Assembly (NCBI GenBank): GCA_964613035.1
Contig: CAZTFQ010000002.1
Coordinates: forward strand, 21,901 to 85,900
DNA length: 64,000 nt
Direction: 5' to 3'
DNA from: an uncultured Christensenellaceae bacterium
GTDB lineage: Bacteria > Bacillota > Clostridia > Christensenellales > DTU072
This document shows positions 26,983 through 56,623 of the stretch, piece after piece. The notes under the pieces were generated by a model. It did not search any database, was not told the DNA's origin, and saw only the letters and a list, made by a program, of their open reading frames with translations. The translations under genes were made by a program, and so were the position numbers. Position 1 is the first letter of the stretch. Every line of letters begins with the position of its first letter.

Positions 26983-28422
26983 TTAATTCTCTTGTACGAG
27001 GATATCGTACTCGGGCATAGGCTTGTTGCGATATTCTTCATCCATTATCGCGAGCTGTTTTTTGATTATGCCTCTCATTCTCACGGCGGGCTCCAGACAA
27101 TATTGTCTCAAGAGCTCCGTATCGACGTCGGAGGGTTGTTTCCAGTGCGGGAAGAGGAGCTTAAGATAAGCGGTCATAATCTTCTTCACGGCATTGGTGT
27201 CACGGGTATCCGCATTGTCGGGGACGACGAGGAACGCGTCCACGAGACCTTTTGAGACAACGTCTTCTCTTAACGCGTGCAATATTTCGGCGAAGTATTC
27301 CGTATTGAGGGCGAAGCCTTCCGCTTTCATACTCTCGTTCATACGAGGGAGTTTCCAGCCCTCGACGAATCCGTGGAAGCGGTCGATGAGCGCGGAGTCG
27401 CCGAAGACTTCCGGCAGTGACTCGAACATATTGACGTTGACGTCCATGACCTCGGATCTGATATTGCCGAGCAAGACCACGCCTGCGTCGCCTTTGCCAG
27501 CCTTGGTGCCGACGGTGTAGGAACCGTTCTCCAGGTATCCTTTCATCGCGCCCTGCATCTCGGACGCGTCGGGGAACTTAATGGTGCTGATTTCGTCCAG
27601 AGCGACGTAGTCGTAATTGGCGACGAGACCGTCGGTCTTTTTACTCATATCGTAGAACATTTTCGCTCTGGTCATAACGCCGCCGCTGGAGAGCCAGCCG
27701 CGCTTGCTGATCTGAGAATAGACGTAGCTTTTGCCGGTGCCCTTGGGGGCGAGCTCGATCATATTGAGTCTCTTCTCGAGGAAGGGAAGGAGTCTGGTAA
27801 GTGCCATCAATTTTCCTTCTCTAGAAGAGTATCCTTCGGGGTTATAATCCATCGCCATCAAGAGGACGTCGATCCATTCGTCCAGCTCGAAATATTTACG
27901 AGCGTTTTTATAATAATCGAGGTCGACGCTATAGGGTAAGAAATTCTTAAAGGACAATAACAGAATTCTGTTCTCCGTCTTCTTGGGGCTGACCTGAACC
28001 TGACCGTACCCCAGCTCTATTATCCCCCATATATCTCCGTCGGTGCCGAGGAGACTGTCTTTACATACGCTCCAGACCTCTTTTGAAATATAGGTGTCGG
28101 AGTTCTTCACGTCGAAGTCGGGCAGAGAAAAGCTGATTTTGTTGGCTTTGATATCGAGCGAAACGTTGATTTTCGCAAGAAACTTCACCTTTTCTCCGTT
28201 CATTATGGAATCGATGATGGCGTTCCATTCTCCCTTACGGGGGATGATGTCTTTTATCTTTTCCAAAACGAAGTCGACGTTGACGTCGCCGTTTTTGTCG
28301 GAATAGCGTTTTATGAACCAGTCTCTGATGAACGCAGGCAGGCTCAGAGCGGAAAAGATGCTCTGGACCGACGACTTTTTAACGACCATTCCTTCGAAAT
28401 ATTGTCTGACTTTTTCTTCCAT
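26983..28422 (-). CDS. P-loop NTPase, possibly BrxL-N-terminal/TIGR02688-like (uncertain family)
   Basis: Walker A LAPKGTGKSY and Walker B YDYVALDEIS. The N-terminal approximately 200-aa domain resembles the BREX BrxL N-region. A 1-nt gap separates it from the upstream AAA gene. Confidence 0.55.
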   Translation of the reverse strand: MEEKVRQYFEGMVVKKSSVQSIFSALSLPAFIRDWFIKRYSDKNGDVNVDFVLEKIKDIIPRKGEWNAIIDSIMNGEKVKFLAKINVSLDIKANKISFSLPDFDVKNSDTYISKEVWSVCKDSLLGTDGDIWGIIELGYGQVQVSPKKTENRILLLSFKNFLPYSVDLDYYKNARKYFELDEWIDVLLMAMDYNPEGYSSREGKLMALTRLLPFLEKRLNMIELAPKGTGKSYVYSQISKRGWLSSGGVMTRAKMFYDMSKKTDGLVANYDYVALDEISTIKFPDASEMQGAMKGYLENGSYTVGTKAGKGDAGVVLLGNIRSEVMDVNVNMFESLPEVFGDSALIDRFHGFVEGWKLPRMNESMKAEGFALNTEYFAEILHALREDVVSKGLVDAFLVVPDNADTRDTNAVKKIMTAYLKLLFPHWKQPSDVDTELLRQYCLEPAVRMRGIIKKQLAIMDEEYRNKPMPEYDILVQEN

Positions 28423-28423
28423 A

Positions 28424-29950
28424 TTATATCTCCATATCGTTTTCGATAACGCCTTTCATGAAGGTAATTTCTTGATTGCAAATGTGATTTTTGGACGATA
28501 TCTCGGCGACGTAGGTACCCGGGGCGTCGATATCCACGACACAACTCCAGTTGCGGATACATTTTTCGCAAGAATAATGCTTGCCGTCCAGCTTGAGATA
28601 CATTCTGTCGTAATCTCCGTCGACGTAGAATCTCAATACGGGGTTTTCTCCGGGTTGCAGAGCTATCAACGTGCTCTCGAACTCGACCGTCGGCGCGTCC
28701 TGAGCGGAGGGGGCTTGAGGTTTCTCTACGGGCTCGGGTTGTACCGCGGGCTGTTCGGGAATAATCTCGGGCACGTCGTCTTCGACGGGTTTTTCGTTAA
28801 GTGAGCGGTCCTTGCCCGCATATTCTTCGAATCGCGCGATTTCCTTTTTGTCGACCATCGGTTTGACCTTTTTTATCGCGTCTACGATATGCTTTTGGGT
28901 GACTTTCATCTCGACGTTCGTGCGGATAAAGCTATTGAGGGGGACGTCCTTGGCGCGATCGCAAATTTCGTCTATATCCGCGCCGGAATAGCCCTCCGTG
29001 AGCTTGGCGATGACGTCGAAGTCCACGTCGTCTTCTATCGGGATGTCCGACAATTGTTTTTTAAGCAGATATTTTCTAGCCGCCTTATCGGGGAGAGGAA
29101 CGTAGATTTTTTCGCTGAATCTTCCCGATCTGACCGCCGCGCCGTCTACGTCCCAGGGGCGATTGGTCGCGCCGAGAAGGAGCAGATTGGGGTTACGTCC
29201 GACGAAGCCGTCTATCTGTTGTAAAAACTCGTTGACGCGCTTATCGTTGTGGGGGTCGTTGCCGCGTTGACCGAAGAGGCTGTCCATCTCGTCGATGAAG
29301 ATGATTGCCAGCTTATCTTTTCTGGCGGTCTCGAAGAGGCTGCTGATGTTCTTTTCCGATTCTCCGACCCATTTACTGACGATATCGGAGCCTTTTATCG
29401 CATAAAAGGTCGCTCCGACCTCGTTGGCGATGGCTTTGGCTATCATCGTTTTCCCTGTGCCGGGAGGACCGTACAGGAGCACGCCGCCGCCGCTTTTTTT
29501 GCCGTAGCGGGCGTATTTCTCGGGATATTTGACGGGATTAATCATCCTCATCCTAATGGACTGCTTGACGTCCTCTAGTCCCGCAACGTCGCTGAATTTG
29601 ATGTCGGGGATGGTTGCGGCTTGCCATTGTTTGGCGTCCTCATCCGACGATGCCGCGTTTTTCTGCCCCGCGGACGGAGCCTTCTTCGGCGTAGTCTGAC
29701 CCGCCGTGCCGCCGATGACGGCGCCGCCTTCCAGATTCTCGGCGATCTCGATGAGCCTTTTCGCTCTCTCGAAGCGAGCCTTTTTCAACTCGCCGGTATC
29801 TTCTTTGGCAAGTTTTATGAGAGCCTGAGCCGCGCGGAGGAGGTTTTCTTTGGCACCGGCGACGTCTCCCCTCTGCTGGGCTTTTTTGGCGTTGTCGTAA
29901 TACATAAGAAACGTATCGTATATGAACGTGCTCTTATCTTCATCCCTCAT
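28424..29950 (-). CDS. Vps4/katanin/spastin-clade AAA+ ATPase with an N-terminal MIT-like domain and a novel Cys-containing C-terminal domain
   Basis: The MIT-like helical N-terminus is YDNAKKAQQRGDVAGAKENLLRAAQALIKLAKE. The AAA core is GVLLYGPPGTGKTMIAKA...SDIVSKWVGESEKNISSLFETARKDKLAIIFIDEMDSL, near-identical in pattern to Vps4. The C-terminal approximately 110 aa contain a CxxC...C...C arrangement. Confidence 0.85.
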   Translation of the reverse strand: MRDEDKSTFIYDTFLMYYDNAKKAQQRGDVAGAKENLLRAAQALIKLAKEDTGELKKARFERAKRLIEIAENLEGGAVIGGTAGQTTPKKAPSAGQKNAASSDEDAKQWQAATIPDIKFSDVAGLEDVKQSIRMRMINPVKYPEKYARYGKKSGGGVLLYGPPGTGKTMIAKAIANEVGATFYAIKGSDIVSKWVGESEKNISSLFETARKDKLAIIFIDEMDSLFGQRGNDPHNDKRVNEFLQQIDGFVGRNPNLLLLGATNRPWDVDGAAVRSGRFSEKIYVPLPDKAARKYLLKKQLSDIPIEDDVDFDVIAKLTEGYSGADIDEICDRAKDVPLNSFIRTNVEMKVTQKHIVDAIKKVKPMVDKKEIARFEEYAGKDRSLNEKPVEDDVPEIIPEQPAVQPEPVEKPQAPSAQDAPTVEFESTLIALQPGENPVLRFYVDGDYDRMYLKLDGKHYSCEKCIRNWSCVVDIDAPGTYVAEISSKNHICNQEITFMKGVIENDMEI

Positions 29951-29965
29951 GACGTATTCCTCTTA

Positions 29966-30550
29966 TTATTGTTTTAAGCTCTTAGCCAGTTCTTCCAGCT
30001 GGCGGTCGATATCGTTGTCCAGAGACTGCTCCTCGTCGGAAGCCTGGTTGCCTATAAGCGCCTCCAACTCGCTGTCGTCGATGTTGATGTTGGAAGACGA
30101 AATCGCGGTGAAGGTATCGTTGGTGGAGTCGAGCATGGCGTCGAGGTTGTCGGTGGTCTCTTCCACGCCCATCATCGCCGCTTCGAATTCCTTCTGGACC
30201 TTGGCGAAGTTCATATCCTTGGTAATAGCCTGCATTTCCTTAGAAACGACGCTCATTCCTTTAAGAAACTCGCCCGTCATCTGGCTCAAATCGCGCATTT
30301 GGAGAGTGTTTTGGAAATTAAGAAGCATTTCCTTGGCTTTTTTCTCCTGAGCCATAGCGGTCCTTAAGCAGCTGACTGCCAGGCTGTATTGCTGAGGAGA
30401 GCCTTGAATCTTAGCCTGTTTTGCGGATTCTACGGCTTTTTGTTTCTGAGCCTGGAGCTTGGTGATATGCTTCTCTATGTCGCGCATGGTCCTGCGCACG
30501 AGCATTCTCTTCTCCATTTCTTTTTCTTGTTTTGTCTTAAAGAGTCCCAT
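29966..30550 (-). CDS. Snf7/ESCRT-III-like protein (CHMP3/Vps24-like) with a C-terminal MIM-like motif
   Basis: The N-terminus MGLFKTKQEKEMEKRML... matches MGLFGKTQEK of Vps24. The N-terminal half is basic and the C-terminal half acidic. It ends DIDRQLEELAKSLKQ, resembling MIM1 (D/E)xxLxxRLxxL(K/R). Confidence 0.75.
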   Translation of the reverse strand: MGLFKTKQEKEMEKRMLVRRTMRDIEKHITKLQAQKQKAVESAKQAKIQGSPQQYSLAVSCLRTAMAQEKKAKEMLLNFQNTLQMRDLSQMTGEFLKGMSVVSKEMQAITKDMNFAKVQKEFEAAMMGVEETTDNLDAMLDSTNDTFTAISSSNINIDDSELEALIGNQASDEEQSLDNDIDRQLEELAKSLKQ

Positions 30551-30561
30551 AATAATTACCT

Positions 30562-31164
30562 CTAGATGGAAGAGCTCTCGCTCTGCTTGTTTTCTTCTTC
30601 GGATATCTCGGAGCCGAAGTTTTCCGCGTCTTTTTCCGAGCCGGATATTTCAAACATACTGAGGAGTTGATCGTCCTGCTCGTTGATTCCGTAGATGCGT
30701 TCGTCCGCCTCGTAGGCGTCCTCGACTTCTTCGAAGGTCTCCAAAGTCTCCGACAGCATACTTTCGCTACGCATTTTTTGTCCGGATATTCCGCTGATAA
30801 ACTTACGGAGCGCGTTGGTGTCCGTAAGAAGCTTGTTGATAGGCATATCGGAATTGTTGTTGATGAATTCCTTATCGTCTATTGCGGTCTTGAGCTGATT
30901 GAGCGCGAGAAGATTGGCGTTGAGATACTGGATGCGCTGATTAGCCATCTGATTCTCTTTACGTAAAAGATTGATACGCTTGGCAAGAGTCAACTGTCTG
31001 TCGCGGCTCTTGGTCTCGCTACCAGCCTTAAGGAGCTTCTCTATCTCTTTTTCCCTCTCCTCGACGGCGTCCATTTCTTCTTGCTGTTTTTTCTCGACGT
31101 TGATTATGTTTTCCACAACGTCGCTACGTTTGATTTTCTCAAACTTATTCTTAAAAAAGCACAT
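30562..31164 (-). CDS. Snf7/ESCRT-III-like paralog (200 aa)
   Basis: The N-terminus MCFFKNKFEK follows the same M-[GC]-[LF]-F-[KQ]-x-K pattern. It is predicted coiled-coil with a basic N-half and an acidic C-tail. Confidence 0.6.
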   Translation of the reverse strand: MCFFKNKFEKIKRSDVVENIINVEKKQQEEMDAVEEREKEIEKLLKAGSETKSRDRQLTLAKRINLLRKENQMANQRIQYLNANLLALNQLKTAIDDKEFINNNSDMPINKLLTDTNALRKFISGISGQKMRSESMLSETLETFEEVEDAYEADERIYGINEQDDQLLSMFEISGSEKDAENFGSEISEEENKQSESSSI

Positions 31165-31166
31165 TT

Positions 31167-31520
31167 TTATACCCCCGCCAGACTGTTGCGCTCAACAATC
31201 ATTATCCTGACGTCGTTGATTTTATCGAGAATTTTTCCTTCGTTTTTATCTCCGGATATCAGAATCTTGATATCGTCCAGCTTATCCGCTATTTTGTCGT
31301 CTTCTTTCATGACTGCGGGTGCGGTGGAAGGCGCGCCGTACTCGACGAGTTCTTCCAGCTCGCGGAGCTTCTCTTTGACGACGTCGGACTCGGACATCGC
31401 TATCAGAGTCTTGACCTTGGCAAGATTGATACGCAGGGTCTCGACGTTATCCTTTATCGCCTCGTCGTGCTTGTCGTATTGTTTTTGATGTTTTTTATAC
31501 TTGGATTGGAAAAAACACAT
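31167..31520 (-). CDS. Short Snf7/ESCRT-III-like paralog (117 aa)
   Basis: N-terminus MCFFQSKYKK. Helical with charge asymmetry. Perfect RBS AAGGAG. It lies 2 nt from the next gene. Confidence 0.5.
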   Translation of the reverse strand: MCFFQSKYKKHQKQYDKHDEAIKDNVETLRINLAKVKTLIAMSESDVVKEKLRELEELVEYGAPSTAPAVMKEDDKIADKLDDIKILISGDKNEGKILDKINDVRIMIVERNSLAGV

Positions 31521-31532
31521 AATCTTATCTCC

Positions 31533-32468
31533 TTATTGTAATCTGTTGCCGCATTTGTTGCAGAACAATGCGTCCGCGCTGACCTTGGCGCCGCACTTGG
31601 AGCAGTATCTGCATACTTCAGCATTGCTGTTGACCACTACCTTGGGTCCGCTGTTTTTCTCGGCGTCCGCGGCGACTTCCGCAAGTTTGACGGTAGCGTC
31701 CACGTACATCTTGGCTGCTTCTTGTCTGGAAGCTCTTTCCTTAGAAAAACTACTGTCTTTAAGCTCGAGAAGTCTCTTTTGTTTGAGAATGGCTTCCAGC
31801 TCTCTGATATCGCTGTCGGCGATTTTGACGTCGTTGAGAGAGAACGCCGTTATTTCCACGCCGTAGTCGTCGAACATCTTTCTGACGCTGTCCAAAATGG
31901 TGTCGCAGATGATTTCCAGATTGGAATTGATCTCGAAATAGCTTATCTTGCTACGCTGCATGGCGTTGGCGATGATGTCCTTGATTTTTACGAGCATTTT
32001 ATCCGCGAAAAACTTCTGGAGCCCGACCGTGGTTATGCCCGCGGTGTTGCCTACTACCTTGGAGATAAACTTACGAGAATTGCTGATATTGATATCGAAA
32101 GAGCCGTGCATTCCTACGTTGACGATATAGTCCGCGAAGGGATCTCTGACTTTCATCTGAGAGGGCGTGCCCCACGGTACGATCAGAGTAACGGTCTTGT
32201 TGACGAAAAACGCCTGACATTTAAAAGGCTCGCTGACGATCTTCTTGCCTATGCCCAAGAATCCTTTCGATACGACGGGCACGTTGAGAGAGTGCTTACC
32301 CGGCAACATCGTGTCCAACATCTGTCCGTCCTTAATAAATACGACTTCGTGAGAAAAAGGAACGATTACCTCTGTCTCCCCTATACATTGCTCGATCTGA
32401 GACTGCCAAACGATAACCTCGTTGGGTCCCTCATAGTCGATAATGGTTTTCGGTAAATCTTTTGCCAT
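31533..32468 (-). CDS. SPFH (stomatin/prohibitin/flotillin) domain protein with a C-terminal Zn-ribbon (COG4260-like)
   Basis: The N-terminus IIDYEGPNEVIVWQ is typical of this SPFH subfamily. The C-terminus carries CRYCSKCG...CNKCG. Confidence 0.7.
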   Translation of the reverse strand: MAKDLPKTIIDYEGPNEVIVWQSQIEQCIGETEVIVPFSHEVVFIKDGQMLDTMLPGKHSLNVPVVSKGFLGIGKKIVSEPFKCQAFFVNKTVTLIVPWGTPSQMKVRDPFADYIVNVGMHGSFDINISNSRKFISKVVGNTAGITTVGLQKFFADKMLVKIKDIIANAMQRSKISYFEINSNLEIICDTILDSVRKMFDDYGVEITAFSLNDVKIADSDIRELEAILKQKRLLELKDSSFSKERASRQEAAKMYVDATVKLAEVAADAEKNSGPKVVVNSNAEVCRYCSKCGAKVSADALFCNKCGNRLQ

Positions 32469-32486: not shown

Positions 32487-33815
32487 TTAATACATATTTT
32501 TTTTGCTTTCCAGCAATGAAGCTTTTTGTTCCAGCCACTCCGCAAAACCGTTGATTTCCACCAACTTGGACTCGTAGCCGCCGCGCAGTCTGCCCATCTC
32601 GTCCAGAATCTGCATCATATGAGAATCGTCCCAGGATCCCGTGAGTCGTCCGAGCGCGTAGAGACACTCCGTGATGACGTTATTTTGCCCGTTGCCGTAG
32701 TCTCTCAATTTCCTCGCCAACAACCTCAGCGCCTCGGGATTGGTACGGACGTCTCCGCCGCCCGTCGAATAAGAACCGCGAACGCCTTCCGCCGATACGG
32801 AACCGCCCGACGACGATTCTCTGCCTCCGCCGTACGAAGGAGCTCTTTTCTCGGGAGCTTTTTCGGGAGCCTTCTCGGGGGTTGCTTTTTCCTTTTCGGC
32901 GACAGGCTCGGAAGCCTTTTCTACGGGTTTCTTTTCCTCGCGGACGAATTGTTTCGCCGCCAATCGAAGAATTCCTTCGAAGTCGCCGTTGCCTATCTCG
33001 AAATAAGGATTGCGCTTGAGTTCCGACGGCATATCGTCGATATCGCAGTCGTACAAGGCGAGGCAGGCTTTTTTGGACGGATCGCTCTTAGCCATCCGCA
33101 GATAACGTCTCCAGACGTCTTCCGCCTGCGTGAGGTTGCAATTGTCAAGCGACGACGTCATTACTATCAACAGCTTGGCTTTCGATATCGCGTTGTAAAG
33201 ATACGGTTCGCGTTCGGTCGGTCCGAGATTTCCCAACTCCGCGCCGCTCCAGAAAACCTTCTTTTTCGTACGTGCTTTCAGTGCCGCGACCAGAGGCATC
33301 GCCAGGGACGCTTCCGGGGAATATTCCTCGCAACACACCATGATGTCGTAGTCGGATTCTTTAGCTATTCTTAAGGCGTTGTTACGCAGTCTGTCCAGCT
33401 CTTCCGCCTTGTAAGCGTATTCTTCCGCCATACTCCCGGGACATAGCGACATGGCTTTTTTATAATAAGCGCTGTCGAAAAACGATTGCGAGCCGATTTC
33501 GTAAAACACCGGACACAAACCATCGTCGTATTTTGAATAAGTCAGGTGCTTGGACGCCAGCATCAATCCCCAGGCGGCTTCGAAGCTGTCGGGGGCATCT
33601 TTCAAAATAGACTCGTAGTCTTCCATCGCCTCTTCGAACTTCGCTTTCCGTCTATACGCGCTCGCGCGGTTAAGATTGATAATGAGCTCGTCGGAGACTT
33701 TAGTAAGATCTATTTCGAACTTCGAATGACAATATATGCACTCGTAGGAGCCCTCGGCCACCTTTTCCAGCGCGCCTCCGCACATTTGACATTCCAGTTT
33801 TCTTAGTTCTGCCAT
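32487..33815 (-). CDS. Zn-ribbon/TPR-like protein with a possible TIR-like (flavodoxin-fold) domain, a PEK-rich linker and a helical C-domain
   Basis: The N-terminus is CQMCGG...YECIYCHSKF. The middle block DIMVCCEEY...KKKVFWSGAELGN...KAKLLIVMTSS has a TIR-like beta-alpha pattern. A (PEKA)n linker follows. The ATG at 33815 overlaps the upstream stop (TGATG). Confidence 0.5.
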   Translation of the reverse strand: MAELRKLECQMCGGALEKVAEGSYECIYCHSKFEIDLTKVSDELIINLNRASAYRRKAKFEEAMEDYESILKDAPDSFEAAWGLMLASKHLTYSKYDDGLCPVFYEIGSQSFFDSAYYKKAMSLCPGSMAEEYAYKAEELDRLRNNALRIAKESDYDIMVCCEEYSPEASLAMPLVAALKARTKKKVFWSGAELGNLGPTEREPYLYNAISKAKLLIVMTSSLDNCNLTQAEDVWRRYLRMAKSDPSKKACLALYDCDIDDMPSELKRNPYFEIGNGDFEGILRLAAKQFVREEKKPVEKASEPVAEKEKATPEKAPEKAPEKRAPSYGGGRESSSGGSVSAEGVRGSYSTGGGDVRTNPEALRLLARKLRDYGNGQNNVITECLYALGRLTGSWDDSHMMQILDEMGRLRGGYESKLVEINGFAEWLEQKASLLESKKNMY

Positions 33816-35923
33816 CACGCACCTCTGTTGCTATCGAGAGCGCTGCCCGAAAAAGCCGTCGAAGAGACGTCGCAATCTTCTTTATAGACGACCTCGACCA
33901 GAGACGTACAATTGCCGAAGGCGTATTCGCCGATAGTGTCGGCGTTGCGGCAATCGACCACTCTCAGCCCGACACAATCGAAAAACGCATAACTGCCGAC
34001 GTTGCCTTCCACGAACACCTTTTTAAGGGACTCGGGGACTTCGTAGCCGCCGAAAAAGTATGCGAGACCCGAGACGTAAGTACCGCCGTTGGTGAGGCTT
34101 TGGACCGTCAACTCCTCTAGTCCCGTGCATCCGTACAACGCACCGTATCCGAAATCTGCGCTACAGGGTAAATCTAATTTTTTAAGAGAGCGACAATTGG
34201 CGTACGCGTTCTCTCCCACGTATATGAAAGTGTTGGCGGAATAAGTCTTGACGGTTATTTTTTGTACATCGATGAGATTGGCAAAGACTTCCGAAGGAAT
34301 AGAGCAAGTCGACGACAAGCTTGTACGCGCGTTGCTGTATTCCACTATTTTCAACGATTTAGGTATATAACTTCTTATTGTGGATTCATTTAAATCGCCG
34401 TCGTATTTCGTCGCACCGAAAAATCTCGAAATACTAGAATTACTAACGTTGTCGAGGTTGTCCTCGAAGACGAGTTTTTGGAGATTTTTGCATCCGGACA
34501 GCGCGCCCTGTTCGATGAGTCTGATATTGTCGCCGATAGTCAGAGAGATTATCGCCTCGTTGCCGCGGAAAGCGTTTGCTCCCAGTCCGACGACGTCGTA
34601 TTCCGTACCGTTGAGCGTAACCTTCTCGGGCACGACGACCTCGTAGTATCCGGGATAAGACGACGATTCCTCACTATCAGGGAAGCTCTTCACGCCCTCT
34701 ATACGCGCGACCAAATCTTCGTTGTCGAAGGAAAGACTGAAAAGATATCCTTCGTCTGAGAGGTTGTATTCTCCCGCCGTGAATCCTTTTAAGAACAAAT
34801 ATCCGCCGGTAAGACCTACCGCCAGGACGAGTATCAACACGATGAAGCTCGTCCAGAGTCTGCCTTTATACTGAGGCGCGTATTTACATTTATGTTTGAT
34901 TTTCTTCCAAGTTACGGGGTCTTCTATTACGATAACGCCTTCCTTCTTCTTGCCGGACTTCTTTTTCTTATGTCCGATAATAAGGAACAGCACGTTGAAC
35001 ACCAGCGAAAATCCCGCCAGACCGAGTCCCAAGAAACAGGCGATTATGTAAAACGCATACGCGCTAAGCATGAGTTCTTCTTGCGCCAGCATCGCGAGAG
35101 GTCCCGCGAAAACAGCCAGCGCCGCGCCCGACGCCACGCCGATGATCATCGACAACCAGGACATGAGCGTGCCTTTTCTTCTGCCTCTCTTTATCTTCTC
35201 GTCGACGCACTGCGCGAGGTCCGCGGTATGCTTTTTACTGTTACTTTTAATAACTGAATAGTTTTTTTTGTATTTTTCGGCGATGGCGTCTTCCTTATTG
35301 CGATATTCGTCCAGATGCGCCTCGAACTTGTCGTTATTCTTGAAGCTTACCTCGGCTTTGGAAGAGAACACGTGAGGATAAGTACCGCGTCTAAGGTCGT
35401 GAAAATCGGCTTCTGCCGTCTCCCAAACCTCTTCCGAATAACCTTTCATCCGATCGGAAACGAAAGACTGCTGAAGATACTTCTTCCCTGCGGAAACGTT
35501 GGATTTTATTTGTTTTTTCTCGGTCGACAATATTTCCGAGTCTTCTTCGATAGGCTCGAGAACGATTTCTTCCGTTTTCTTTTTCCCGCGCTTTTTAGAA
35601 GCCGATTTGTCTTCTTTGGGAGAGGGGGCTTCTACAACTTCTTCGACGACTTCTTCGTCGTCCTCGGATTCCTCCGCGAAAAACGCCTCGATATCGTCCT
35701 CGTAGTCGGAGTCGTCTTCTTCGTCTTCTTCGTAGTATTCTTCCTCTTCGACTATTATATCGTCGTCGTATTCTTCGTTGACGGAAATAGTCGACTCTTC
35801 GTCGGAAGCGACTTCTTCGGATTTCTTATTAGCCTCTTCTTGCGCCAGCATGTTTTGCTTCTCTTCAAGAAGTTTTTTCAACTCTTCGATGGTTAAATTG
35901 TTGAGATCGTCTTTTTTACCCAT
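33815..35923 (-). CDS. Membrane protein: hyper-acidic cytoplasmic N-region, 3-4 TM helices and an extracellular BspA-type leucine-rich-repeat domain
   Basis: An EEYDDDIIVEEEEYYEEDEEDD tract. Hydrophobic helices lie around residues 255-360. The C-terminal repeats with IGEYAFGNCTSLVEV are typical of BspA-like LRRs. Confidence 0.65.
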   Translation of the reverse strand: MGKKDDLNNLTIEELKKLLEEKQNMLAQEEANKKSEEVASDEESTISVNEEYDDDIIVEEEEYYEEDEEDDSDYEDDIEAFFAEESEDDEEVVEEVVEAPSPKEDKSASKKRGKKKTEEIVLEPIEEDSEILSTEKKQIKSNVSAGKKYLQQSFVSDRMKGYSEEVWETAEADFHDLRRGTYPHVFSSKAEVSFKNNDKFEAHLDEYRNKEDAIAEKYKKNYSVIKSNSKKHTADLAQCVDEKIKRGRRKGTLMSWLSMIIGVASGAALAVFAGPLAMLAQEELMLSAYAFYIIACFLGLGLAGFSLVFNVLFLIIGHKKKKSGKKKEGVIVIEDPVTWKKIKHKCKYAPQYKGRLWTSFIVLILVLAVGLTGGYLFLKGFTAGEYNLSDEGYLFSLSFDNEDLVARIEGVKSFPDSEESSSYPGYYEVVVPEKVTLNGTEYDVVGLGANAFRGNEAIISLTIGDNIRLIEQGALSGCKNLQKLVFEDNLDNVSNSSISRFFGATKYDGDLNESTIRSYIPKSLKIVEYSNARTSLSSTCSIPSEVFANLIDVQKITVKTYSANTFIYVGENAYANCRSLKKLDLPCSADFGYGALYGCTGLEELTVQSLTNGGTYVSGLAYFFGGYEVPESLKKVFVEGNVGSYAFFDCVGLRVVDCRNADTIGEYAFGNCTSLVEVVYKEDCDVSSTAFSGSALDSNRGA

Positions 35924-35976: not shown

Positions 35977-36252
35977 TTATTTTATCAGCCCCGAGTATCT
36001 CTCCATTATGTCGAGCCTCTGCGTCACGCCGTCGTCCACCGTCGCTCTGTACGCCGCCACGACTTGCAGAAGAGCCTCCAGCTCCGATAATATCTCTCCC
36101 GTGAGATTGTCTATACTCTTCTCCGTCGCGATATCGCTAAGAGAATCTTTTAGCAGGATATACTCGGACTCTATTCTTTCGTGAAGTTCCGCCGTACACG
36201 CTCTGAAAGCGAGAAGCTTCTCGGGAGTGTTATCTATCGTTATTCCGCTCAT
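35977..36252 (-). CDS. Small helical protein (92 aa)
   Basis: The ORF-track N-extension overlaps the upstream gene. The internal ATG at 36252 gives a 4-nt overlap (ATGA) with the upstream stop, typical of translational coupling. Confidence 0.45.
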   Translation of the reverse strand: MSGITIDNTPEKLLAFRACTAELHERIESEYILLKDSLSDIATEKSIDNLTGEILSELEALLQVVAAYRATVDDGVTQRLDIMERYSGLIK

Positions 36253-36761
36253 AGACCGAATCTCCTCGCGTTGAGATATTCTCCGACGCAATTTTCGCAG
36301 GCGTCGACGAGTGCCGCTCTCGCTCCGAATGTCTCTCCCAGAGCGTTGAGCAATCGGCTGATTTCCGAAGTGAGCTCGTCGGCTCTCTCTATCCTTTTGT
36401 CGACGAAACCGCATATCTCCTCTATAACGGAGATATTGGCGGAGAGCTCTTTACAAAACTCGTCTATTCCGTCGATGTCGGCGGCAAGTTTTTCAGACTC
36501 GCCTTCGTTTTTGTCAAACAACTTTTCCTCGCTGCTGACGGAAACGAGATCGTTTTCCATGGCGACGCGTCTGGTGTTGCGCTCTTCGATGATGGCGTTA
36601 AGTTTCCTCTTCTTGTCCTCGAGATTTTCGCGGACGGACGAGGCGATTTCTCTTGCCGCGGCTATTTCCGAGGAATACGCGCCGACGTTTTCCGCAATCG
36701 TCGCGTACAGCTTGAAATAGACGTTCTTTGCCGCTTCTATCGCGTCGAGATTGACTTTCAT
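36249..36761 (-). CDS. Coiled-coil protein (170 aa)
   Basis: RBS GGAGGAG. Heptad-like helical sequence. Stop/start overlaps on both sides. Confidence 0.5.
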   Translation of the reverse strand: MKVNLDAIEAAKNVYFKLYATIAENVGAYSSEIAAAREIASSVRENLEDKKRKLNAIIEERNTRRVAMENDLVSVSSEEKLFDKNEGESEKLAADIDGIDEFCKELSANISVIEEICGFVDKRIERADELTSEISRLLNALGETFGARAALVDACENCVGEYLNARRFGL

Positions 36762-37021
36762 CGGTTCTCCTCCGCACGCGCATACGCCGCTCTCAAAAGG
36801 TTGTCGAGGTCTTCCGCGGGTACTGCCGCCACCGCCTCGTTGAGGGCGGTAAAGAATTCTTCGTCGCTTCTTTTCAACAAGAGCGCGACGTTACTGAGAT
36901 CTTCTATTCCGCTACCGAGAACCGCCGCGCCTACTTCGTCGTCCCATTCCGCGGACAACTCGTCGATAGACGCGCGGGCTTCCGCTATAGCCGCCAGACA
37001 ATCGTCGATATACTTACTCAT
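36758..37021 (-). CDS. Small helical protein (87 aa), WXG100-sized
   Basis: All-helical and acidic with a central W (AEWDDEVG). It has 4-nt overlaps with its neighbours. Confidence 0.5.
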   Translation of the reverse strand: MSKYIDDCLAAIAEARASIDELSAEWDDEVGAAVLGSGIEDLSNVALLLKRSDEEFFTALNEAVAAVPAEDLDNLLRAAYARAEENR

Positions 37022-37284
37022 GAGTCAAGATACATACACAGCCAGTTGTAAACTTCCTGACAAAAGCCGTCTATGGCGTTGAGTCTGCCGAGAATTTCCG
37101 ACAAGTCTGCCGTTATTCCCTGGAAGTTGTTAAGAAACTTGACCACGTTGGCGTCTTTCCATTCCGACAGACTCTGTTCTATCTCCGACACCATCTCGGA
37201 ATGATTTTGGACAAGCGCCTGCTCGGTCTGTCTCACTATGTTCTGAGCCGTCAGTACGGACTCTTTGCTTACGTTGACGTTCAT
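37018..37284 (-). CDS. Small helical protein (88 aa), WXG100-sized
   Basis: RBS GAGGAAAGA. Helix-turn-helix-like hairpin with a central SEWKDA. Confidence 0.5.
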   Translation of the reverse strand: MNVNVSKESVLTAQNIVRQTEQALVQNHSEMVSEIEQSLSEWKDANVVKFLNNFQGITADLSEILGRLNAIDGFCQEVYNWLCMYLDS

Positions 37285-37292
37285 TCTTTCCT

Positions 37293-37559
37293 CTACTTGA
37301 GCGTAATGCTTCTATATAAGTCGATGAGCTCTTGTTTTTGCCTGATGACGTTTTCGACGCCGTCGGTCTTGGAAACCAGCTCGTCGGCAATCGACAACAA
37401 CTTGACCGCGACTTCTTCCGCGTCGGCGTAATCTCGGTCGGCACAATTCTCTTTCAGCGCCTGTACTTTACGCAGATAATCGACGCACGCGTCTCTTACT
37501 TCTCCGACGACTCTTCCGAGCGCTCCCTCGTCTACGGAACCGCTTACCTTTACTTCCAT
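37293..37559 (-). CDS. Small helical protein (88 aa)
   Basis: Helical. It overlaps the 3' end of the upstream ATPase gene by 10 nt. Confidence 0.5.
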   Translation of the reverse strand: MEVKVSGSVDEGALGRVVGEVRDACVDYLRKVQALKENCADRDYADAEEVAVKLLSIADELVSKTDGVENVIRQKQELIDLYRSITLK

Positions 37560-40500
37560 AGAGCGTTATAATCCTCTGCCAGCTTAACCATCCAGGCTTC
37601 GTCCGCTTCGCTGTAGTATCTGTACGGCTTAAACTTATTCATCTCGTTGTTGACGAGGCATACGCCCAGTCCTTCTATGCCGATATTGATATTGCTTCTA
37701 AACGATGCGACCGATGTGACGGCTTCCGCGTCGAGTCCCTTGATGAAGACCTTGTTCTGACAATTACGCATAACGGTATTGATGCTGGGGACGCTGGACG
37801 GCTTGTCTATCGAGAACACTATATGAATATTCTGGTTGGGTCCGTTTTCGAACACGTCGTTGAACAGTTGCGAAAAAGTCATCTTGTTGCCGCCGGAAGA
37901 CGCCGCGCCGCCTAAGTTGAGTCCGAGACTGAACCCCATTCCGGACGATGACGCCACGGGTGCGGGGGCGGGTTTTTCGGACAAATCGATGAGCTTGGAG
38001 TTGTCCTTGAAGTAAGACGCTATCTCCTGAATTTTGTTTATGAACAGGAATATCGGATTGTGCTTATCCTGAATATGGTCTGCTCTCTCTTTTCTGAGAT
38101 TATGAAGCTTGACCAGAGCATCGGTGAGATCTCCCGCGGCATTCAAAACGCGAGTCGAATCCGCGAAATACTTAGGCAGGACGAAGAACAGGTCGTCGGG
38201 GTTTTTCTGACTGATGACTTCGCCGTTGAAGTAGTACACCTGCGCGGAGGAGTCGTTTTCAAAGTCTTGGTTGGTACGGTTTTCCATAAGCACGGACAGC
38301 ATGGAAAAGCCCATCATATCTCTCAGCACCTCTACGTTGGCGCCGGCGAACCACAGGTTGGAATTGGACTCGCGCAGACGTATCGGGATATTGTACGGCT
38401 TGCCGGAGATGTAATCCTGACCGATAGCCAGATTGTAGAAGTCGGCGGACTTGGAGACGATATCTTCTTTCGAGACTTTTTTCGTGTAAGCGGAGAGACC
38501 CTCGTTGGCTTTGGGCTCTTCGAGGTTGCTGCCGACGACGAAGAGCGGCTCTCTGACGCTCCACTTGGAGACGACGTCTTGCCACTTCTCTATAATGCGC
38601 TCGGAATACATCTCTCTGTTGTCGGAGTTTTCCGCATACGCCACGCGGAATTCAGCCGCGTTCTGTCCAGTACGGGTATCCTTGATGATGCCTACGCCCA
38701 AGGTATTGGACAAATTGGCTACTTTAGATACGCTTATGCCCAGTTCTTGCGCGTCGTCGGGATTGTTGAGTTTAAGAGAAATTCTGTTGCCTATCTGAGA
38801 AATGACCTTGTCTCTGAGTCCCGCCACCTTAGGCACGTTCTGCGACGCCCAGAGCACGTTGATGCCGAAAGCTCTGCCTTTTTTGAAGAGCTTGGACATA
38901 AGATTGATGGCGTAGGTGCCGACGTTTTGGTCGCGCTCGAACAGTTCCTGAACCTCGTCGATGATGACAAGCAGTCTCGGGAGCGTCTTACCGGCACGCT
39001 TCTTGTATTGCATGATGTCTTCCACGTTGTTGTTGCGGAAGAGCGCCTCTCTTCTCTCCAGCTCTTTGTCTATGTTGGACAACACCGCGAGTCCGTCCTC
39101 GGGGTCGGAAGAAAGCGCCGTCAGCTTGACGTGAGGAAGTTGTTTTTCTACGTTCTTGTTGGCTTCGTAATACTTGAATTCCACGCCGCCCTTGAAGTCG
39201 ACCAGGTAGATGTTGAGGTCGTCGGGGCTGTACTTATAGCACGCGGACATAACGATGGCGTGGAGTAGGTTGGACTTACCGCTACCGGTACCGCCTATCG
39301 CCAGAGCGTGAGCCGCGCCGTCGCCCTTGGACGAAAACGCCAGAGTCTGAACGTCTCCGCCTCTCATACCTATCGGGATATCGATAATCTCCGTAGGATC
39401 CGCGTAATCCTCGCTCTTGACGACGACGTCGGTGCTGTCGAACATCTTGGACAGTGCGATAACCTTGTTGGCGCTCTTCTTGATGTTCTGTTTCATAACC
39501 TTGATGTAGTCGTCCAGCTTTTCGTACGAGCAGTCTTTATTGTTTTCGAAAACGTATTTGGGATTGGCTTCCAAATAAATTTCGCCGCCCTTAACGAGGA
39601 AATAATTCATCGATTGCTTCGCCTCCGCGACGAAGTCTTTTATGTACTGGGGCTGAGTGCCCTTGCCGTTGTACAGCATTATCGTGAATATACCGGAACG
39701 ATTGCCGTTGTCGATGATTTTTTTGAGTCTCTTGACGGTCTTCTCGCTGCTGAAACATTCCGGGAAACCGACTATCGACAACACCGAGAACGCCTGGGGG
39801 TCGTTTTCGGAAACGACGTTGTAACCGTAGATGTCTTTTTTGTTGCTACGAGTGATTTTATCGTCGTAGATACTGCCCATTCTCTCGTCAAGATTGACAA
39901 TCTCGTTGGACACTCTCGAATCGTCGTTGTAAGTCTTTTTGAATAGATTGTTGTCGATGTTGTTGAGCTGGTTGAACGCGGCGAATTCTCCCGTATCGTA
40001 GAGGTCTATCAGTTGATAATTGACCCTCGTCGGCGGGAACCCCATCAAAAACGACAACATAATGTTGCGCACCATCGATATGGCGACCGCATTATCCTTG
40101 TCGGAATCCACTTCTATCAAAACGTTGCCGTTCTTTTTCAACTCCAGCACGTACGGCGCGGTCAGTACGCCGCCGGGCGTGTATTTGCCGAGTAAGGGAC
40201 TGTCGGTAGAATTGATATATTTTTTGTAGCCGTCCTTATCGAGATAACTGATCTTCATATCGCCGAGAGTCAGCTTGGTGGGATAAGTAAGACTGCCTTT
40301 TTCGAAGTCTACCTTGCCGCTCTTGGCAGACTCGTAAATGTCGCAAAAACGGTCGTCGTTGAGAACATTGTCTTCTACCTGAAGTCTGTTCTTGAGAGCG
40401 GAAGCCATCTCCTTATTGAGGACCGCCGCGCAATCTGCCATATATTCTTCCGACTGCTTTTTGAGATGTTTATCGAATTTTTTAAGGTCGAAACGTCTCC

Positions 40501-41086
40501 TTATCATCGTTTCCATGGAGTCGAGGACCATACGGCACTGAGAAGCCTTCCCGTACAGCTCTCTCATCAGGTCCGTATAAGGCGTCCCGTAGACGCCGTA
40601 CTCCTTGGAGTCGCCGAGCGTTACGGTCCTCTTCCCGTCGCGATCGTTGATTACGAAGCTCTCCGCTCTGCCTTCTACGGAGAGAACCTCGGGAATGGGT
40701 TCGGTCGCCTCCAAATCGAGGTCGTTGAGAGCCTCTACGAGAGCGTTCATTTCCGCACACAGTCTTTTGACGGTGTCTCTGTTGACGTCGTAGTCGAGAG
40801 AAACGATTCCTTCCTTGGGGACGTCGCCTATGTTGGCGATACTCTCTTTCATGCTATTGCCGTATGAGTCGAGGAGCTTTTGAATATCTTTTCTGACTCT
40901 GTCCACTTCCGTCTTGACGTAAGTATCGATCGACTTCTCCATCTCCTTGTAGAGCTTGGAATTGGTCTCGTCGAGAGCGTTGCGTTGCATAACGATAGCG
41001 CCGGCGATTTCTTTCTCGAAGGCGCTCAACGCGGAAAAACGAGCGTTGAAAGAATCTATCATTTTTTTGATTTCTTTGAATTCCAT
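37550..41086 (-). CDS. FtsK/SpoIIIE-family (EssC/EccC-like) ATPase with three tandem domains (one intact P-loop), no TM segment
   Basis: Central domain is GGTGSGKSNLLHAIVMS (Walker A) ... LPRLLVIIDEVQELF (Walker B). The flanking domains have the FtsK-like fold pattern but degenerate P-loops. It is the first gene of the operon, with RBS GAGAGGAAG. Confidence 0.75.
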   Translation of the reverse strand: MEFKEIKKMIDSFNARFSALSAFEKEIAGAIVMQRNALDETNSKLYKEMEKSIDTYVKTEVDRVRKDIQKLLDSYGNSMKESIANIGDVPKEGIVSLDYDVNRDTVKRLCAEMNALVEALNDLDLEATEPIPEVLSVEGRAESFVINDRDGKRTVTLGDSKEYGVYGTPYTDLMRELYGKASQCRMVLDSMETMIRRRFDLKKFDKHLKKQSEEYMADCAAVLNKEMASALKNRLQVEDNVLNDDRFCDIYESAKSGKVDFEKGSLTYPTKLTLGDMKISYLDKDGYKKYINSTDSPLLGKYTPGGVLTAPYVLELKKNGNVLIEVDSDKDNAVAISMVRNIMLSFLMGFPPTRVNYQLIDLYDTGEFAAFNQLNNIDNNLFKKTYNDDSRVSNEIVNLDERMGSIYDDKITRSNKKDIYGYNVVSENDPQAFSVLSIVGFPECFSSEKTVKRLKKIIDNGNRSGIFTIMLYNGKGTQPQYIKDFVAEAKQSMNYFLVKGGEIYLEANPKYVFENNKDCSYEKLDDYIKVMKQNIKKSANKVIALSKMFDSTDVVVKSEDYADPTEIIDIPIGMRGGDVQTLAFSSKGDGAAHALAIGGTGSGKSNLLHAIVMSACYKYSPDDLNIYLVDFKGGVEFKYYEANKNVEKQLPHVKLTALSSDPEDGLAVLSNIDKELERREALFRNNNVEDIMQYKKRAGKTLPRLLVIIDEVQELFERDQNVGTYAINLMSKLFKKGRAFGINVLWASQNVPKVAGLRDKVISQIGNRISLKLNNPDDAQELGISVSKVANLSNTLGVGIIKDTRTGQNAAEFRVAYAENSDNREMYSERIIEKWQDVVSKWSVREPLFVVGSNLEEPKANEGLSAYTKKVSKEDIVSKSADFYNLAIGQDYISGKPYNIPIRLRESNSNLWFAGANVEVLRDMMGFSMLSVLMENRTNQDFENDSSAQVYYFNGEVISQKNPDDLFFVLPKYFADSTRVLNAAGDLTDALVKLHNLRKERADHIQDKHNPIFLFINKIQEIASYFKDNSKLIDLSEKPAPAPVASSSGMGFSLGLNLGGAASSGGNKMTFSQLFNDVFENGPNQNIHIVFSIDKPSSVPSINTVMRNCQNKVFIKGLDAEAVTSVASFRSNINIGIEGLGVCLVNNEMNKFKPYRYYSEADEAWMVKLAEDYNALWK

Positions 41087-51952: not shown

Positions 51953-54538
51953 TTATTTGCTTTCGGGTTCCGTCGGAGCTTCCGCGGGAGCCTCTGTCTG
52001 TACCGAAGGAGCTTCGGCGGCTTCGGGCGCGGGGTTGACGATATTGCCGTCCTCGTCGAATACGTCGTATTGAGCCTCGTCGTCGTGAGGAGTGAGCGCC
52101 ATTGCCATGACCTTGGCGTCGCCTCTCTGTCTCATGACGATAACGCCCTGAGCGGCTCTGCCGGTCTTCCTTATCTGCTCGGCTTTAATTCTGATCATTA
52201 TGCCGGAGTCGCTTATGATAATGATATCGTCATCGTCGGGGCTGACGAGTTTTTGGTTGACTATTCTTCCGGTCTTGTCGGTGAAGTTGCCCGCTTTGAT
52301 ACCCTTACCGGCTCTGCCTTGCAGACGATACTCGTCGAGAGAACAACGTTTTCCGTAACCCTTCTCGGTTATCGTGACGACTTCTTTGCTTTCGTCGACC
52401 AGCGCGAGATCGACTATGCTGTCGTCCTCGTCTATCTTCATCGACTTGACGCCCATGCTTTCTCTACCGGTAGGACGAACGGTGTCTTCGGAGAATCTGA
52501 TGCACTTGCCTTCCGCGGAAGCCATCATCAGCTCGGCGTTACCGTCGGTCTTAAGGACTCCGACCAGCTCGTCGCCTTCCTGGAGCGTTATGCACTTCTT
52601 GCCGTTGGCGCGGATCTTTTTGAATTCCGCCATATCGGTCTTCTTAATAAGTCCCTTTTTAGTCGCCATGACGAGATATCCGTCCTGATACTCGCTCATA
52701 TTGAGAAGCGACGTAATTTTTTCACCGGGTTGGAGCGGAAGTATATTGACGATGGCTCTGCCCTTGGACGTCTTGGTCGCCTCGGGTATCTCGTATCCCA
52801 TCAGGAAGTAGACTCTGCCGAAGTTGGAGAAGAACAATATTCCGTCGTGCGTATTGGTGGTGAAGATGGACGAAACGAAGTCTTCTTCCTTGGTCTTGTG
52901 CGCGGTTACGCCTATGCCGCCTCTGTTTTGGACTCTGTATTCGTCCACGGGAAGTCTCTTGATATATCCGCCGTAGGTCATGGAAACGACCACGTCTTCT
53001 CTCTCGATGAGGTCCGCAATGTTGATTTCGGAAGAGTCGTACGACAGCTCCGAGCGACGCGGTACGCCGTACTTTTCTTTAATCGTAAGAAGGTCTTCTT
53101 TTATAATCGTTCTGACTCTCTCGGGCTTGTCGAGAATGTCGAGATAATCCGCTATGGCGGCGTGAAGTTCGGCAAGTTCCGCCTTGAGCTTTTCCACTTC
53201 CAGACTCGTAAGAGTACGGAGTTTCATCTCCACTATTGCGGTGGCTTGTCTTTCCGACAGATCGAATCTTACCATTAAGTTGTTGATGGCGTCCTTGGCG
53301 TCGGAACTGCGTTTGATTATAGCAACGACTTCGTCGATATTGTTCTGCGCGATGACCAGACCTTCCACGATATGGGCTCTTTCTCTTGCTTTCTGGAGAT
53401 TGAAGCGAGTGCGTCTCTCTATAACTTCTATCTGGTGCGCGACGTACGCCTCGAGCATCTCTTTAAGATTGCATATCTTAGGCGCACCGTTGACCAGCGC
53501 GAGGAATATGATACCCTCTTTGACCTGAAGAGCGGTCTGTTTATACAGAGAATTGAGCACGACCTGCGCGGAGAAGTCCTTCTTAATGTCGATGACTATT
53601 CTCATACCGGTACGGTCGGAATGCTCGTGAATGTTGGATATTCCGTCCAGCTTCTTGTCTTTGACCTGCTGAGCGATATTCTTGAGCATATCTTCCTTAA
53701 TAATCTGATACGGTATCTCGGTGACGACTATACTCTCTCTGCCGTTGTTTTCTTCTATCTCGCACTTGGCGCGGATAACGACGCCGCCGTGACCGGTGCG
53801 ATACGCCTCTTTTATCGCGGCGCGACCCAAAACCAAACCTCCCGTCGGATAATCGGGAGCGGGGATATATTTCATCAGATCGTCGATCGTGATATCGGGA
53901 TCGTCGATGAGGGCGACAGTACCGTCGATAACCTCGGCAAGGTTGTGAGGAGGAATGTTGGTCGCCATACCTACCGCGATACCTTCCGTTCCGTTAACGA
54001 GCAGATTGGGAAATCTTGCGGGCAGAACGACGGGTTGCAAGAGAGTATCGTCGTAGTTGGGGTAAAAGTCGACCGTTTCTTTGTCGATGTCTCTTAACAA
54101 CTCCGCGGCAATCTTAGAAAGTCTCGCCTCGGTGTATCTCATTGCGGCGGGCTTGTCGCCGTCGATACTTCCGAAGTTGCCCTGACCGTCGATGAGCGGG
54201 TGATTGATGGAGAAAGGCTGCGCCATACGAGCCAGAGCTTCATATATGGACGAGTCTCCGTGAGGGTGATATTTACCCATAACGTCACCGACTATACGGG
54301 CGCATTTTTTATGAGGAGAGGTATAATAATTGCTAGCCTCGTTCATCGAGAAGAGTATTCTTCTCTGCACCGGCTTAAGACCGTCTCTTACGTCCGGAAT
54401 GGCACGCGACGCGTTGACCGCCATCGCATAGCTAATGAAGCTGTTTTCCATCTCGTCGCGGATGTTTTTATGGAGAATCTTGGTTTTTGACAAAGACTCT
54501 CTGATTTTTTCTACGTCTATATGCTTATTGGATGCCAT
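51953..54538 (-). CDS. gyrA: DNA gyrase subunit A
   Basis: [10 protein letters not shown] active-site region. 861 aa including C-terminal beta-pinwheel repeats. Confidence 0.95.
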
Positions 54539-54548
54539 AACTCACCTC

Positions 54549-56468: not shown

Positions 56469-56623
56469 AAGAATCTCCTAAATTAGAATTTGGATTTATT
56501 TTATCATATATTATATTAAATGTAAAGTAATAATTAAAATAAACGCGCGCATACGTGTGTACGCACATATTACGCGCGTTATGCGCGCGCACGCGCGCAT
56601 ACATATATAAATTGTATCTTGCA

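Follow-up and report, generated by a model that had tools for sequence, protein, structure and literature searches.

We describe here a gene cluster in a 64 kb window of the genome of an uncultured Christensenellaceae bacterium (contig CAZTFQ010000002.1, positions 21,901 to 85,900; the window is this whole stretch, and coordinates below count from its first letter). [quoted passage not shown] That protein, P194, is encoded by the last of three adjacent open reading frames (ORFs), after P117 and P200, and its gene adjoins that of a 508-aa ATPase with an MIT-AAA-Vps4_C architecture. The operon thus joins a protein of the Snf7 clade, with a MIM1-like tail (MIM, MIT-interacting motif), to an ATPase of the kind that would recognize it, a pairing that reviews deny to bacteria. 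It is also conserved. A pattern-limited search in which each GTDB species was represented by a single genome (about 185,000 in all) recovered a P194 relative in 107 species, and among the 80 loci that were fetched P194 is accompanied by the MIT-AAA ATPase at 76, by P200 at 74 and by a protein with an SPFH domain at 61. The order SPFH-P117-P200-P194-AAA is nearly invariant over these loci, with the SPFH gene at the head of the core.

The best Pfam match of P194 is Snf7 (PF03357; E=8.1e-5, 22.8 bits, residues 18-145 on profile positions 6-135). The match is marginal for this sequence alone and holds at the level of the family: 16 of 30 diverse orthologs match Snf7, the best at 2.8e-8, no other family appears in more than two of them, and PF03357 is part of the precomputed annotation of many P194-family clusters. 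PspA_IM30 (PF04012) gave no match for P194 at E<=1, nor for the 30 orthologs at E<=0.01. The initial annotation had assigned P194 to Snf7 and had named PspA as the family that might explain it better, and the sensitive profile search comes down on the side of Snf7. In the PDB, the only sequence match of P194 is CHMP2A, aligned in register (residues 5-137 against 2-138) with E=0.22, or 0.91 with the family profile.

Structure prediction is concordant with this assignment. The AlphaFold2 model built from the family alignment (pLDDT, the predicted local distance difference test, of 80) has helices at residues 7-49, 52-110, 113-148 and 159-193, that is, the helical hairpin that was to be looked for, here a long one, followed by α4 and α5/6 as in the ESCRT-III core fold. 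A Foldseek search of the PDB with this model returns Sulfolobus islandicus CdvB at the top (probability 0.98, E=0.065), together with CdvB2, CHMP2A-CHMP3 and CHMP1B; CdvB, CdvB2 and CHMP2A hold ranks 1-4 and 6, with E-values no better than 0.065, and neither PspA nor Vipp1 is found among the top 50. The proposed asymmetry between a basic N-terminal and an acidic C-terminal part is clear in the net charges of residues 1-110 (+10) and 111-194 (-15), the family medians being +10 and -12. About a third of the family starts with an MGLFK-type sequence. At the other end, the resemblance to MIM1 that had been noticed in this one protein turned out to be a property of the family, since 60 of 67 species have the pattern [DE]xxI[DE][KR]EL[EA][EA]L[KR]K[KR][MI] at a distance of 4-10 residues from the C-terminus. 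This tail has the spacing and the flanking charges of the canonical MIM1, (D/E)xxLxxRLxxL(K/R), with Glu or Gln at the position of the arginine. P194 is therefore a member of the Snf7/ESCRT-III family, nearest in its features to the CHMP1-3/Vps2-24 type, on statistics that are modest, independent and concordant.

The ATPase has a single classic AAA cassette (Pfam E=2e-41) with AAA_lid_3 and Vps4_C (E=7.9e-4). Among the NCBIfam models that it matches are CDC48 (241 bits), CdvC (217 bits, with model positions 79-367 of 370 aligned), PAN (212) and FtsH (208). Searched against the PDB, the AAA core segment finds two-domain Cdc48/p97 chains first, and the top single-AAA chain is SKD1/VPS4B. The pore loop reads SKWVGESEK. 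For the N-terminal domain, a profile of 24 orthologous domains matches 11 MIT structures in the PDB, among them the MIT domains of an oomycete chitin synthase (2mpk, E=0.0033 over the full domain), Sulfolobus CdvC (2w2u, 0.037), VPS4A/B (0.2-3) and calpain-7, and Pfam MIT is the top and most frequent family among the individual orthologs (6 of 24, best 1.3e-4). The precomputed annotation of the 120 closest ATPase clusters, whose AAA cores share at least 68% identity, includes Vps4_C (PF09336) for about half of them and MIT (PF04212) for about ten. We read the architecture as MIT-AAA-Vps4_C because the AAA, Vps4_C and CdvC-model matches are joined by the MIT matches of the ortholog N-domains, which makes the protein Vps4/CdvC-like by domain architecture. 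An MIT domain had already been proposed for this protein; the ortholog profiles bear the proposal out, and the N-domain of the window protein by itself does not.

Downstream of Vps4_C and a Pro/Gln-rich linker, the ATPase carries some 130 further residues (28424-28810, minus strand) that contain cysteines and are probably β-rich. No Pfam family matches this segment, which the ATPase forms of 480-530 aa possess and those of about 375 aa lack.

That three adjacent ORFs begin alike was correctly noted from the start, as to coordinates, lengths and N-termini. The motif M[GC][LF]F[KQ].K has exactly three matches in a six-frame search of the window, all of them at the starts of P194, P200 and P117, and this confinement is not a matter of chance. 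Over the 80 related loci, the strict form of the motif starts 42 of 57, 22 of 69 and 24 of 56 members of the three families, as compared with 5 of 1073 other ORFs. Of the proposal that the three are Snf7-like paralogs, the part concerning P194 stands. The roles of nucleator, polymer and cap that had been read from their differing sizes are speculative. Pairwise BLASTP among P194, P200 and P117 is non-significant, so paralogy of all three finds no support at the sequence level, and P117 aligns with P194 or P200 over its first 4-9 residues only. What the motif might do is suggested by the P117 family, present in 56 loci by clustering: 17 of the 56 orthologs lack the M[CGF][LF]F+KK start and carry a true N-terminal transmembrane helix instead, which argues that the motif common to the three proteins serves as a membrane anchor. 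The idea of a conserved, possibly acylated Cys2 did not survive comparison of orthologs. They start with MWPF, MGLF, MFFF, MCFF, MALF and other sequences, and the cysteine is unconserved in all three families. We rejected lipidation, given W, G, F, A, L or P at this position and no lipobox.

P117 itself has no Pfam match and is characterized by a body motif of its own, KYLxPS…DxKIxxxxxDLKI. We considered it as an ESCRT-III protein and discarded the idea, for about 110 residues are too few for the core fold, only residues 1-9 align and the KYLxPS motif is particular to it. At one locus (L085:12350-13384) a 344-aa protein combines a P117-like N-terminus (hmmsearch E=6e-5) with an acidic tail ending DDADFEKMLKEM, which resembles the DDxLLxMFE motif of P200; it looks like a natural P117-P200 fusion.

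P200 constitutes a family of at least 51 clusters, and no Pfam match was found in the 23 members searched. It has in common with P194 the N-terminal motif, the length, a split of charge (+3 in the N-terminal part, -16 in the rest) and the helix boundaries, which fall at 13-50, 54-104, 116-150 and 163-186 in a model of pLDDT 65 whose hairpin alone is confident. Its helical hairpin is long, its tail acidic, and it carries the conserved motif IYGxNxxDDxLLxMFE. The top Foldseek matches are Vipp1, CHMP3, Asgard ESCRT-IIIB, CHMP4-7, PspA and CHMP1B, all with E-values of at least 0.27. Aligned with hhalign, narrow profiles of the families give probabilities of 1-2%. With broad profiles, P194 and P200 reach a score of 24.9 (P=0.0033, probability 9.8%), colinear over 158 columns and superposing SDxEIDxLI of P194 on DDxLLxMFE of P200, a result that is borderline by its controls (11.8 and 13.9 for reversed profiles, 23.4 for one of 20 column shuffles). 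Taking sequence and model together, we incline to the opinion that P200 is a very diverged ESCRT-III-like paralog, which is plausible and not established.

The operon comes in two subtypes that differ in the ATPase. In the first, to which the window belongs, the ATPase has 370-530 aa. In the second it has about 700 aa and consists of an MIT-like domain, a SpoVK/CbxX-like AAA domain (AAA_lid_6) and a Vps4-like cassette (L021:10587-12725 and about 35 other loci); a gene for a Zn-ribbon and trypsin-like protease usually comes next, and an ABC ATPase with an FtsX-like permease of about 875 aa is often present. Close homologs come from metagenome-assembled genomes (MAGs) of Christensenellales, and the host labels cover Christensenellales/Christensenellaceae, 'Coproplasma', Izemoplasma, Acholeplasmataceae, Anaeroplasmataceae, Mollicutes and other Clostridia and Bacilli MAGs. 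An exhaustive profile search extends the P194 family to 598 representative clusters, in some of which the Snf7-like domain forms the N-terminal ~185 residues of larger fusions (P0158, P0216, P0247, P0265, P0161, P0171, P0193, P0175 and P0187; loci L084, L085:8001-10403 and L086). It is joined there to a RuvB-like AAA domain with a winged helix and a NERD nuclease, to a RuvB-like AAA domain with a TnsA-like endonuclease, or to FtsK_alpha and FtsK/SpoIIIE motors, and in this last case it takes the place of the FtsK septum-targeting membrane domain. The same partners that surround P194 flank the fusions of L085 and L086, and the operon of the NERD fusion also encodes a trypsin-like protease, a Band_7_1 SPFH protein, a second Snf7-like protein and an MIT-AAA ATPase.

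Table 1. Features of the operon in the window.
Feature	Position	Strand	Remarks
702-aa protein	33815-35923	minus	Transmembrane segments (central) and BspA-type leucine-rich repeats; highly acidic N-terminus
Zn-ribbon/TPR accessory	32487-33818	minus	Zn-ribbon, TPR (profile matches) and degenerate TIR-like domain (TIR from orthologs)
SPFH protein	31533-32468	minus	311 aa; Band_7_1 (PF13421) E=1e-22; Zn_Ribbon_1 E=6e-8 at residues 288-310
P117	31167-31520	minus	117 aa, start MCFFQSK; small helical protein, putatively membrane-anchored; new family
P200	30562-31164	minus	200 aa, start MCFFKNK; possible highly diverged second ESCRT-III-like subunit
P194	29966-30550	minus	194 aa, start MGLFKTK, end DIDRQLEELAKSLKQ; Snf7/ESCRT-III-like
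MIM1-like C-terminal helix of P194	29975-30013	minus	Residues ~180-192, DIDRQLEELAKSL
MIT-AAA ATPase	28424-29950	minus	508 aa; MIT-like + AAA + Vps4_C, plus extra ~130-aa C-terminal domain
BrxL-like ATPase	26983-28422	minus	BrxL_N + BrxL_ATPase (Pfam E=8e-114); subtype-specific accessory
Repeat protein, transmembrane/secreted	23869-26922	minus	Last gene of the string; Trypsin_2 E=4.5e-5 (weak); Flg_new E=4e-39 (Listeria-Bacteroides repeats)
Terminator-like hairpin	23820-23845	minus	10-bp stem with 6 GC pairs, T-run; closes the co-directional string

All these genes form one packed, co-directional string (Table 1), with gaps of 1-18 nt within the operon and of 11 and 2 nt between P194, P200 and P117, and the hairpin that closes it is the top minus-strand terminator between 23000 and 38000. 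The SPFH protein, with Band_7_1 and a C-terminal zinc ribbon, has by its domains a YdjI-type architecture. In the Zn-ribbon/TPR accessory the TIR domain is recognized through orthologs, by a TIR_2 match of E=2.7e-14 in Izemoplasma and a weak one in the operon of a relative of 88% identity; most TIR orthologs keep the glutamate of a WVKNEW motif, which is lost in the window protein (AEDVWRRY), so that its TIR-like domain may be catalytically dead. The BrxL-like ATPase matches TIGR02688 with 434 bits and the BrxL model of PADLOC with 653 bits, and has no Lon protease domain. Whether the repeat protein that ends the string belongs to the system is uncertain. At the other end, the first 4 nt of the Zn-ribbon/TPR gene are shared with the gene of the 702-aa protein, which occurs in duplicate in close relatives and lies outside the wider conserved core.

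Two observations concern the immediate neighbours. A gene for an 877-aa protein (21120-23753, plus strand) with a thiol-activated, cholesterol-dependent cytolysin domain (E=6e-33) converges on the end of the operon; that a pore-forming toxin stands beside a putative membrane-repair module may be chance or may have a meaning. Upstream of the operon (35977-41086, minus strand), a 1178-aa ATPase of the FtsK/SpoIIIE family, EssC-like, and small helical ORFs of 87-170 aa resemble a type VII secretion cluster, which is kept in the two closest relatives (L001, L002, L081-L083). The wider surroundings comprise pyrG, cysS, gyrA, gyrB, mnmG, glycoside hydrolases and tRNA genes, including a tRNA-Met, tRNA-Met, tRNA-Glu cluster at 19990-20381 on the plus strand, and they identify an ordinary core chromosome, not a prophage or a plasmid; no integrase or other mobile-element gene was identified among the window ORFs scanned. 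The proximity of gyrA, gyrB and mnmG (51953-60107, minus strand), less than 30 kb away, suggests that the operon is origin-proximal.

Starting from the observed family membership, domain architecture, conserved motifs and gene linkage, we propose the following mechanism. P117, P200 and P194 would be tethered to the cytoplasmic membrane, on its inner face, by their short hydrophobic-plus-basic N-terminal motif, at a site that the SPFH/Zn-ribbon protein would mark or organize, as YdjI does for PspA in Bacillus. There P194, probably with P200, would polymerize through its basic hairpin, the acidic C-terminal half being autoinhibitory until recruitment. The MIT-like domain of the ATPase would bind the exposed MIM1-like helix of P194, and the ATPase would thread and disassemble the subunits, remodelling and recycling the polymer at the expense of ATP. 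The most likely physiological output is the repair, sealing or scission of stressed membrane. The accessories that vary from lineage to lineage (TIR, trypsin-like protease, BrxL-like ATPase, NERD/TnsA or FtsK fusions) suggest that many lineages have tied the module into a response to stress or a defence against phages.

Several points weigh against this reading. P194 scores below the gathering cut-off of Snf7 (22.8 against 27.3 bits) and the ATPase below that of Vps4_C (19.8 against 21.3); the PDB-profile and Foldseek E-values of P194 are individually non-significant; and the 80 N-terminal residues of the window ATPase, searched alone, give no Pfam MIT match. Against Cdc48 D2 the AAA core does no worse than against CdvC, an origin within the Vps4 clade is unproven, and the arginine of MIM1 is exchanged for Glu or Gln. 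Polymerization, membrane binding, the MIM-MIT contact and the physiological role are what we infer from sequences and models. Finally, a conflict system would account for the effector-like accessories (TIR, nuclease, protease, BrxL) no less well than a housekeeping repair machine would. A bolder version, that Christensenellales and Izemoplasma-like Bacilli own a true ESCRT, we put forward as a tentative possibility that does not have the odds on its side: a Snf7-clade polymer, possibly an A-type/B-type pair of P194 and P200, would be recycled through its MIM1 tail by an MIT-domain Vps4 homolog, shared or exchanged with archaea, and would carry out scission or repair of reverse topology, often co-opted as an immune platform with TIR, protease and nuclease effectors.

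The most serious rival, which partly overlaps with our interpretation and differs from it in physiological purpose, is that of an anti-phage or conflict system in which infection or a disturbed envelope would be sensed by a membrane-associated SPFH/ESCRT-III-like scaffold that governs variable effectors, the AAA protein resetting or activating the scaffold. We regard it as unlikely, if well short of negligible. Accessories do vary around a fixed core, as this rival would have it: the Zn-ribbon-TPR-TIR protein accompanies P194 at 52 of the 80 loci, the Zn-ribbon-trypsin protein lies 3' of the AAA gene at 35 and the BrxL-like ATPase directly follows the AAA gene at 13-15. Snf7-like domains are fused to RuvB-like AAA with NERD, to a TnsA-like endonuclease and to FtsK motors in operons of the same kind, the TIR glutamate is kept in most orthologs, and the distribution is patchy, with 107 species in our pattern-limited search. 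Yet this glutamate is missing from the window protein, the locus sits in the core chromosome near gyrA, gyrB, mnmG, pyrG and cysS with no mobile-element genes among the ORFs scanned, and an AAA core at least 68% identical across the 120 closest clusters is unusual for arms-race genes. Nor do the defence collections recognize the core: in PADLOC-DB v2 no model matches the Snf7-like, P200, SPFH or TPR-TIR proteins, P117 has only a negligible match to Cas12d (E=0.0056), the ATPase matches IetA and TRIP13 generically, and the BrxL-like accessory alone matches strongly. A phage origin was rejected as well: IMG/VR viral contigs contained no relatives, and PHROG gave no matches for the ESCRT-like or SPFH proteins.

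Improbable, to a further degree, is a Cdv-like machine for division, vesicle budding or scission coupled to DNA segregation, whose polymer and ATPase would cut membrane necks, especially in wall-less Izemoplasma- or Acholeplasma-like hosts. The pairing of Snf7 with an MIT-AAA protein is indeed the core of the archaeal Cdv/ESCRT machinery (PMC11237479), the replacement of the septum-targeting domain in FtsK/SpoIIIE fusions points in this direction, and Izemoplasma, Acholeplasmataceae, Anaeroplasmataceae and Mollicutes are among the hosts; but the operon is found in a subset of species only, the locus has no CdvA or ESCRT-II-like gene, and TIR, protease and BrxL accessories would not be expected. 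That these are generic coiled-coil or PspA-like stress proteins, in which the likeness to Snf7, MIT and MIM is a compositional coincidence of charged helices, would explain the weak E-values against solved structures and the column shuffle that came close to the real P194-P200 score, but it is very improbable in view of a Snf7 family that alone is matched by many P194 orthologs (PspA_IM30 never), MIT as the most frequent match of the ATPase N-domain with PF04212 and PF09336 precomputed in many orthologs, MIM1 spacing kept at the extreme C-terminus, strict gene linkage and the convergence of independent lines on one system.

The interest of the ESCRT-III/Vps4-like module lies in that it brings the pairing of an ESCRT-III protein with a Vps4-like ATPase to bacteria, where it has new partners and can be tested directly. 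How ATP-driven recycling of ESCRT-III arose, and what a minimal ESCRT machine needs, become questions that can be addressed in bacteria, as does the question whether the handshake between MIT and MIM is older than the split of archaea and bacteria or was transferred between them. Through its links to SPFH, TIR, protease and nuclease proteins, the module points to a tie between membrane remodelling and immunity in bacteria that is as yet unexplored. Its hosts belong to abundant and heritable taxa of the human gut (Christensenellaceae), and its components, small proteins of 117-508 aa, lend themselves to reconstitution.

The components are already visible in databases, where the precomputed Pfam annotation tags many of them as Snf7, MIT or Vps4_C. 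Reviews of 2023 and 2025 describe bacteria as being without a clear Vps4 homolog and as having ESCRT-III relatives of the PspA/Vipp1 type only, and in the literature on Christensenellales, Izemoplasma, Clostridia or Firmicutes with ESCRT, Snf7 or Vps4 we found no description of such an operon. A related report is that of Ravi, Aravind and colleagues in 2024 (PMC11237479), according to which some bacterial phyla received VPS4-like ATPases by transfer, snf7 being displaced, and PspA or a divergent Snf7 anchored by a transmembrane segment, the latter in Candidatus Handelsmanbacteria, lies beside a double-AAA ATPase and an ABC transporter. Our loci resemble those operons in that a gene of the ESCRT-III superfamily stands beside a classic AAA gene, and subtype 2 has a two-AAA ATPase with an ABC ATPase and permease; they differ in the MIT-MIM pairing, the SPFH protein, the P117 and P200 families and the Christensenellales/Izemoplasma distribution, none of which is described there. 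The 'Meth_adaptin' ESCRT loci (Makarova et al. 2024) are archaeal and contain adaptin-appendage, GOLD and ProX proteins that are absent here.

Among bacterial systems, we see a close likeness to pspA-ydjGHI of Bacillus subtilis, in which a gene of the ESCRT-III superfamily is likewise found with a Band_7_1 SPFH protein bearing a C-terminal zinc ribbon, with a likely role in membrane stress or repair; YdjI is needed to localize PspA in this organism (as quoted in PMC10936438). Unlike PspA, Vipp1 and LiaH, P194 matches Snf7 and not PspA_IM30, and it is accompanied by an MIT-AAA ATPase and has a MIM-like tail, both absent from PspA systems. With respect to the ESCRT of archaea and eukaryotes, the differences are the bacterial hosts (Christensenellales and Izemoplasma-like Bacilli), a locus without ESCRT-I/II or CdvA, and partners that comprise a YdjI-type SPFH protein, a new putative anchor protein of 117 aa and a hairpin protein of 200 aa that is very divergent, to which are added the Glu or Gln in place of the MIM arginine, an ATPase with an extra C-terminal domain or (in subtype 2) a SpoVK-like AAA, and the TIR, protease, BrxL and nuclease accessories. 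The likeness to archaeal and eukaryotic ESCRT-III and Vps4/CdvC extends over the Snf7 profile match of P194, its hairpin followed by α4/α5 and its basic-N/acidic-C charges; over a start, MGLFKTKQEK, that is of the hydrophobic insertion motif type as in CHMP3; over a tail with MIM1 spacing and an ATPase with an MIT-like domain, a single AAA cassette and Vps4_C; and over the gene arrangement, with the genes of P194 and of the ATPase adjoining each other as in archaeal operons.

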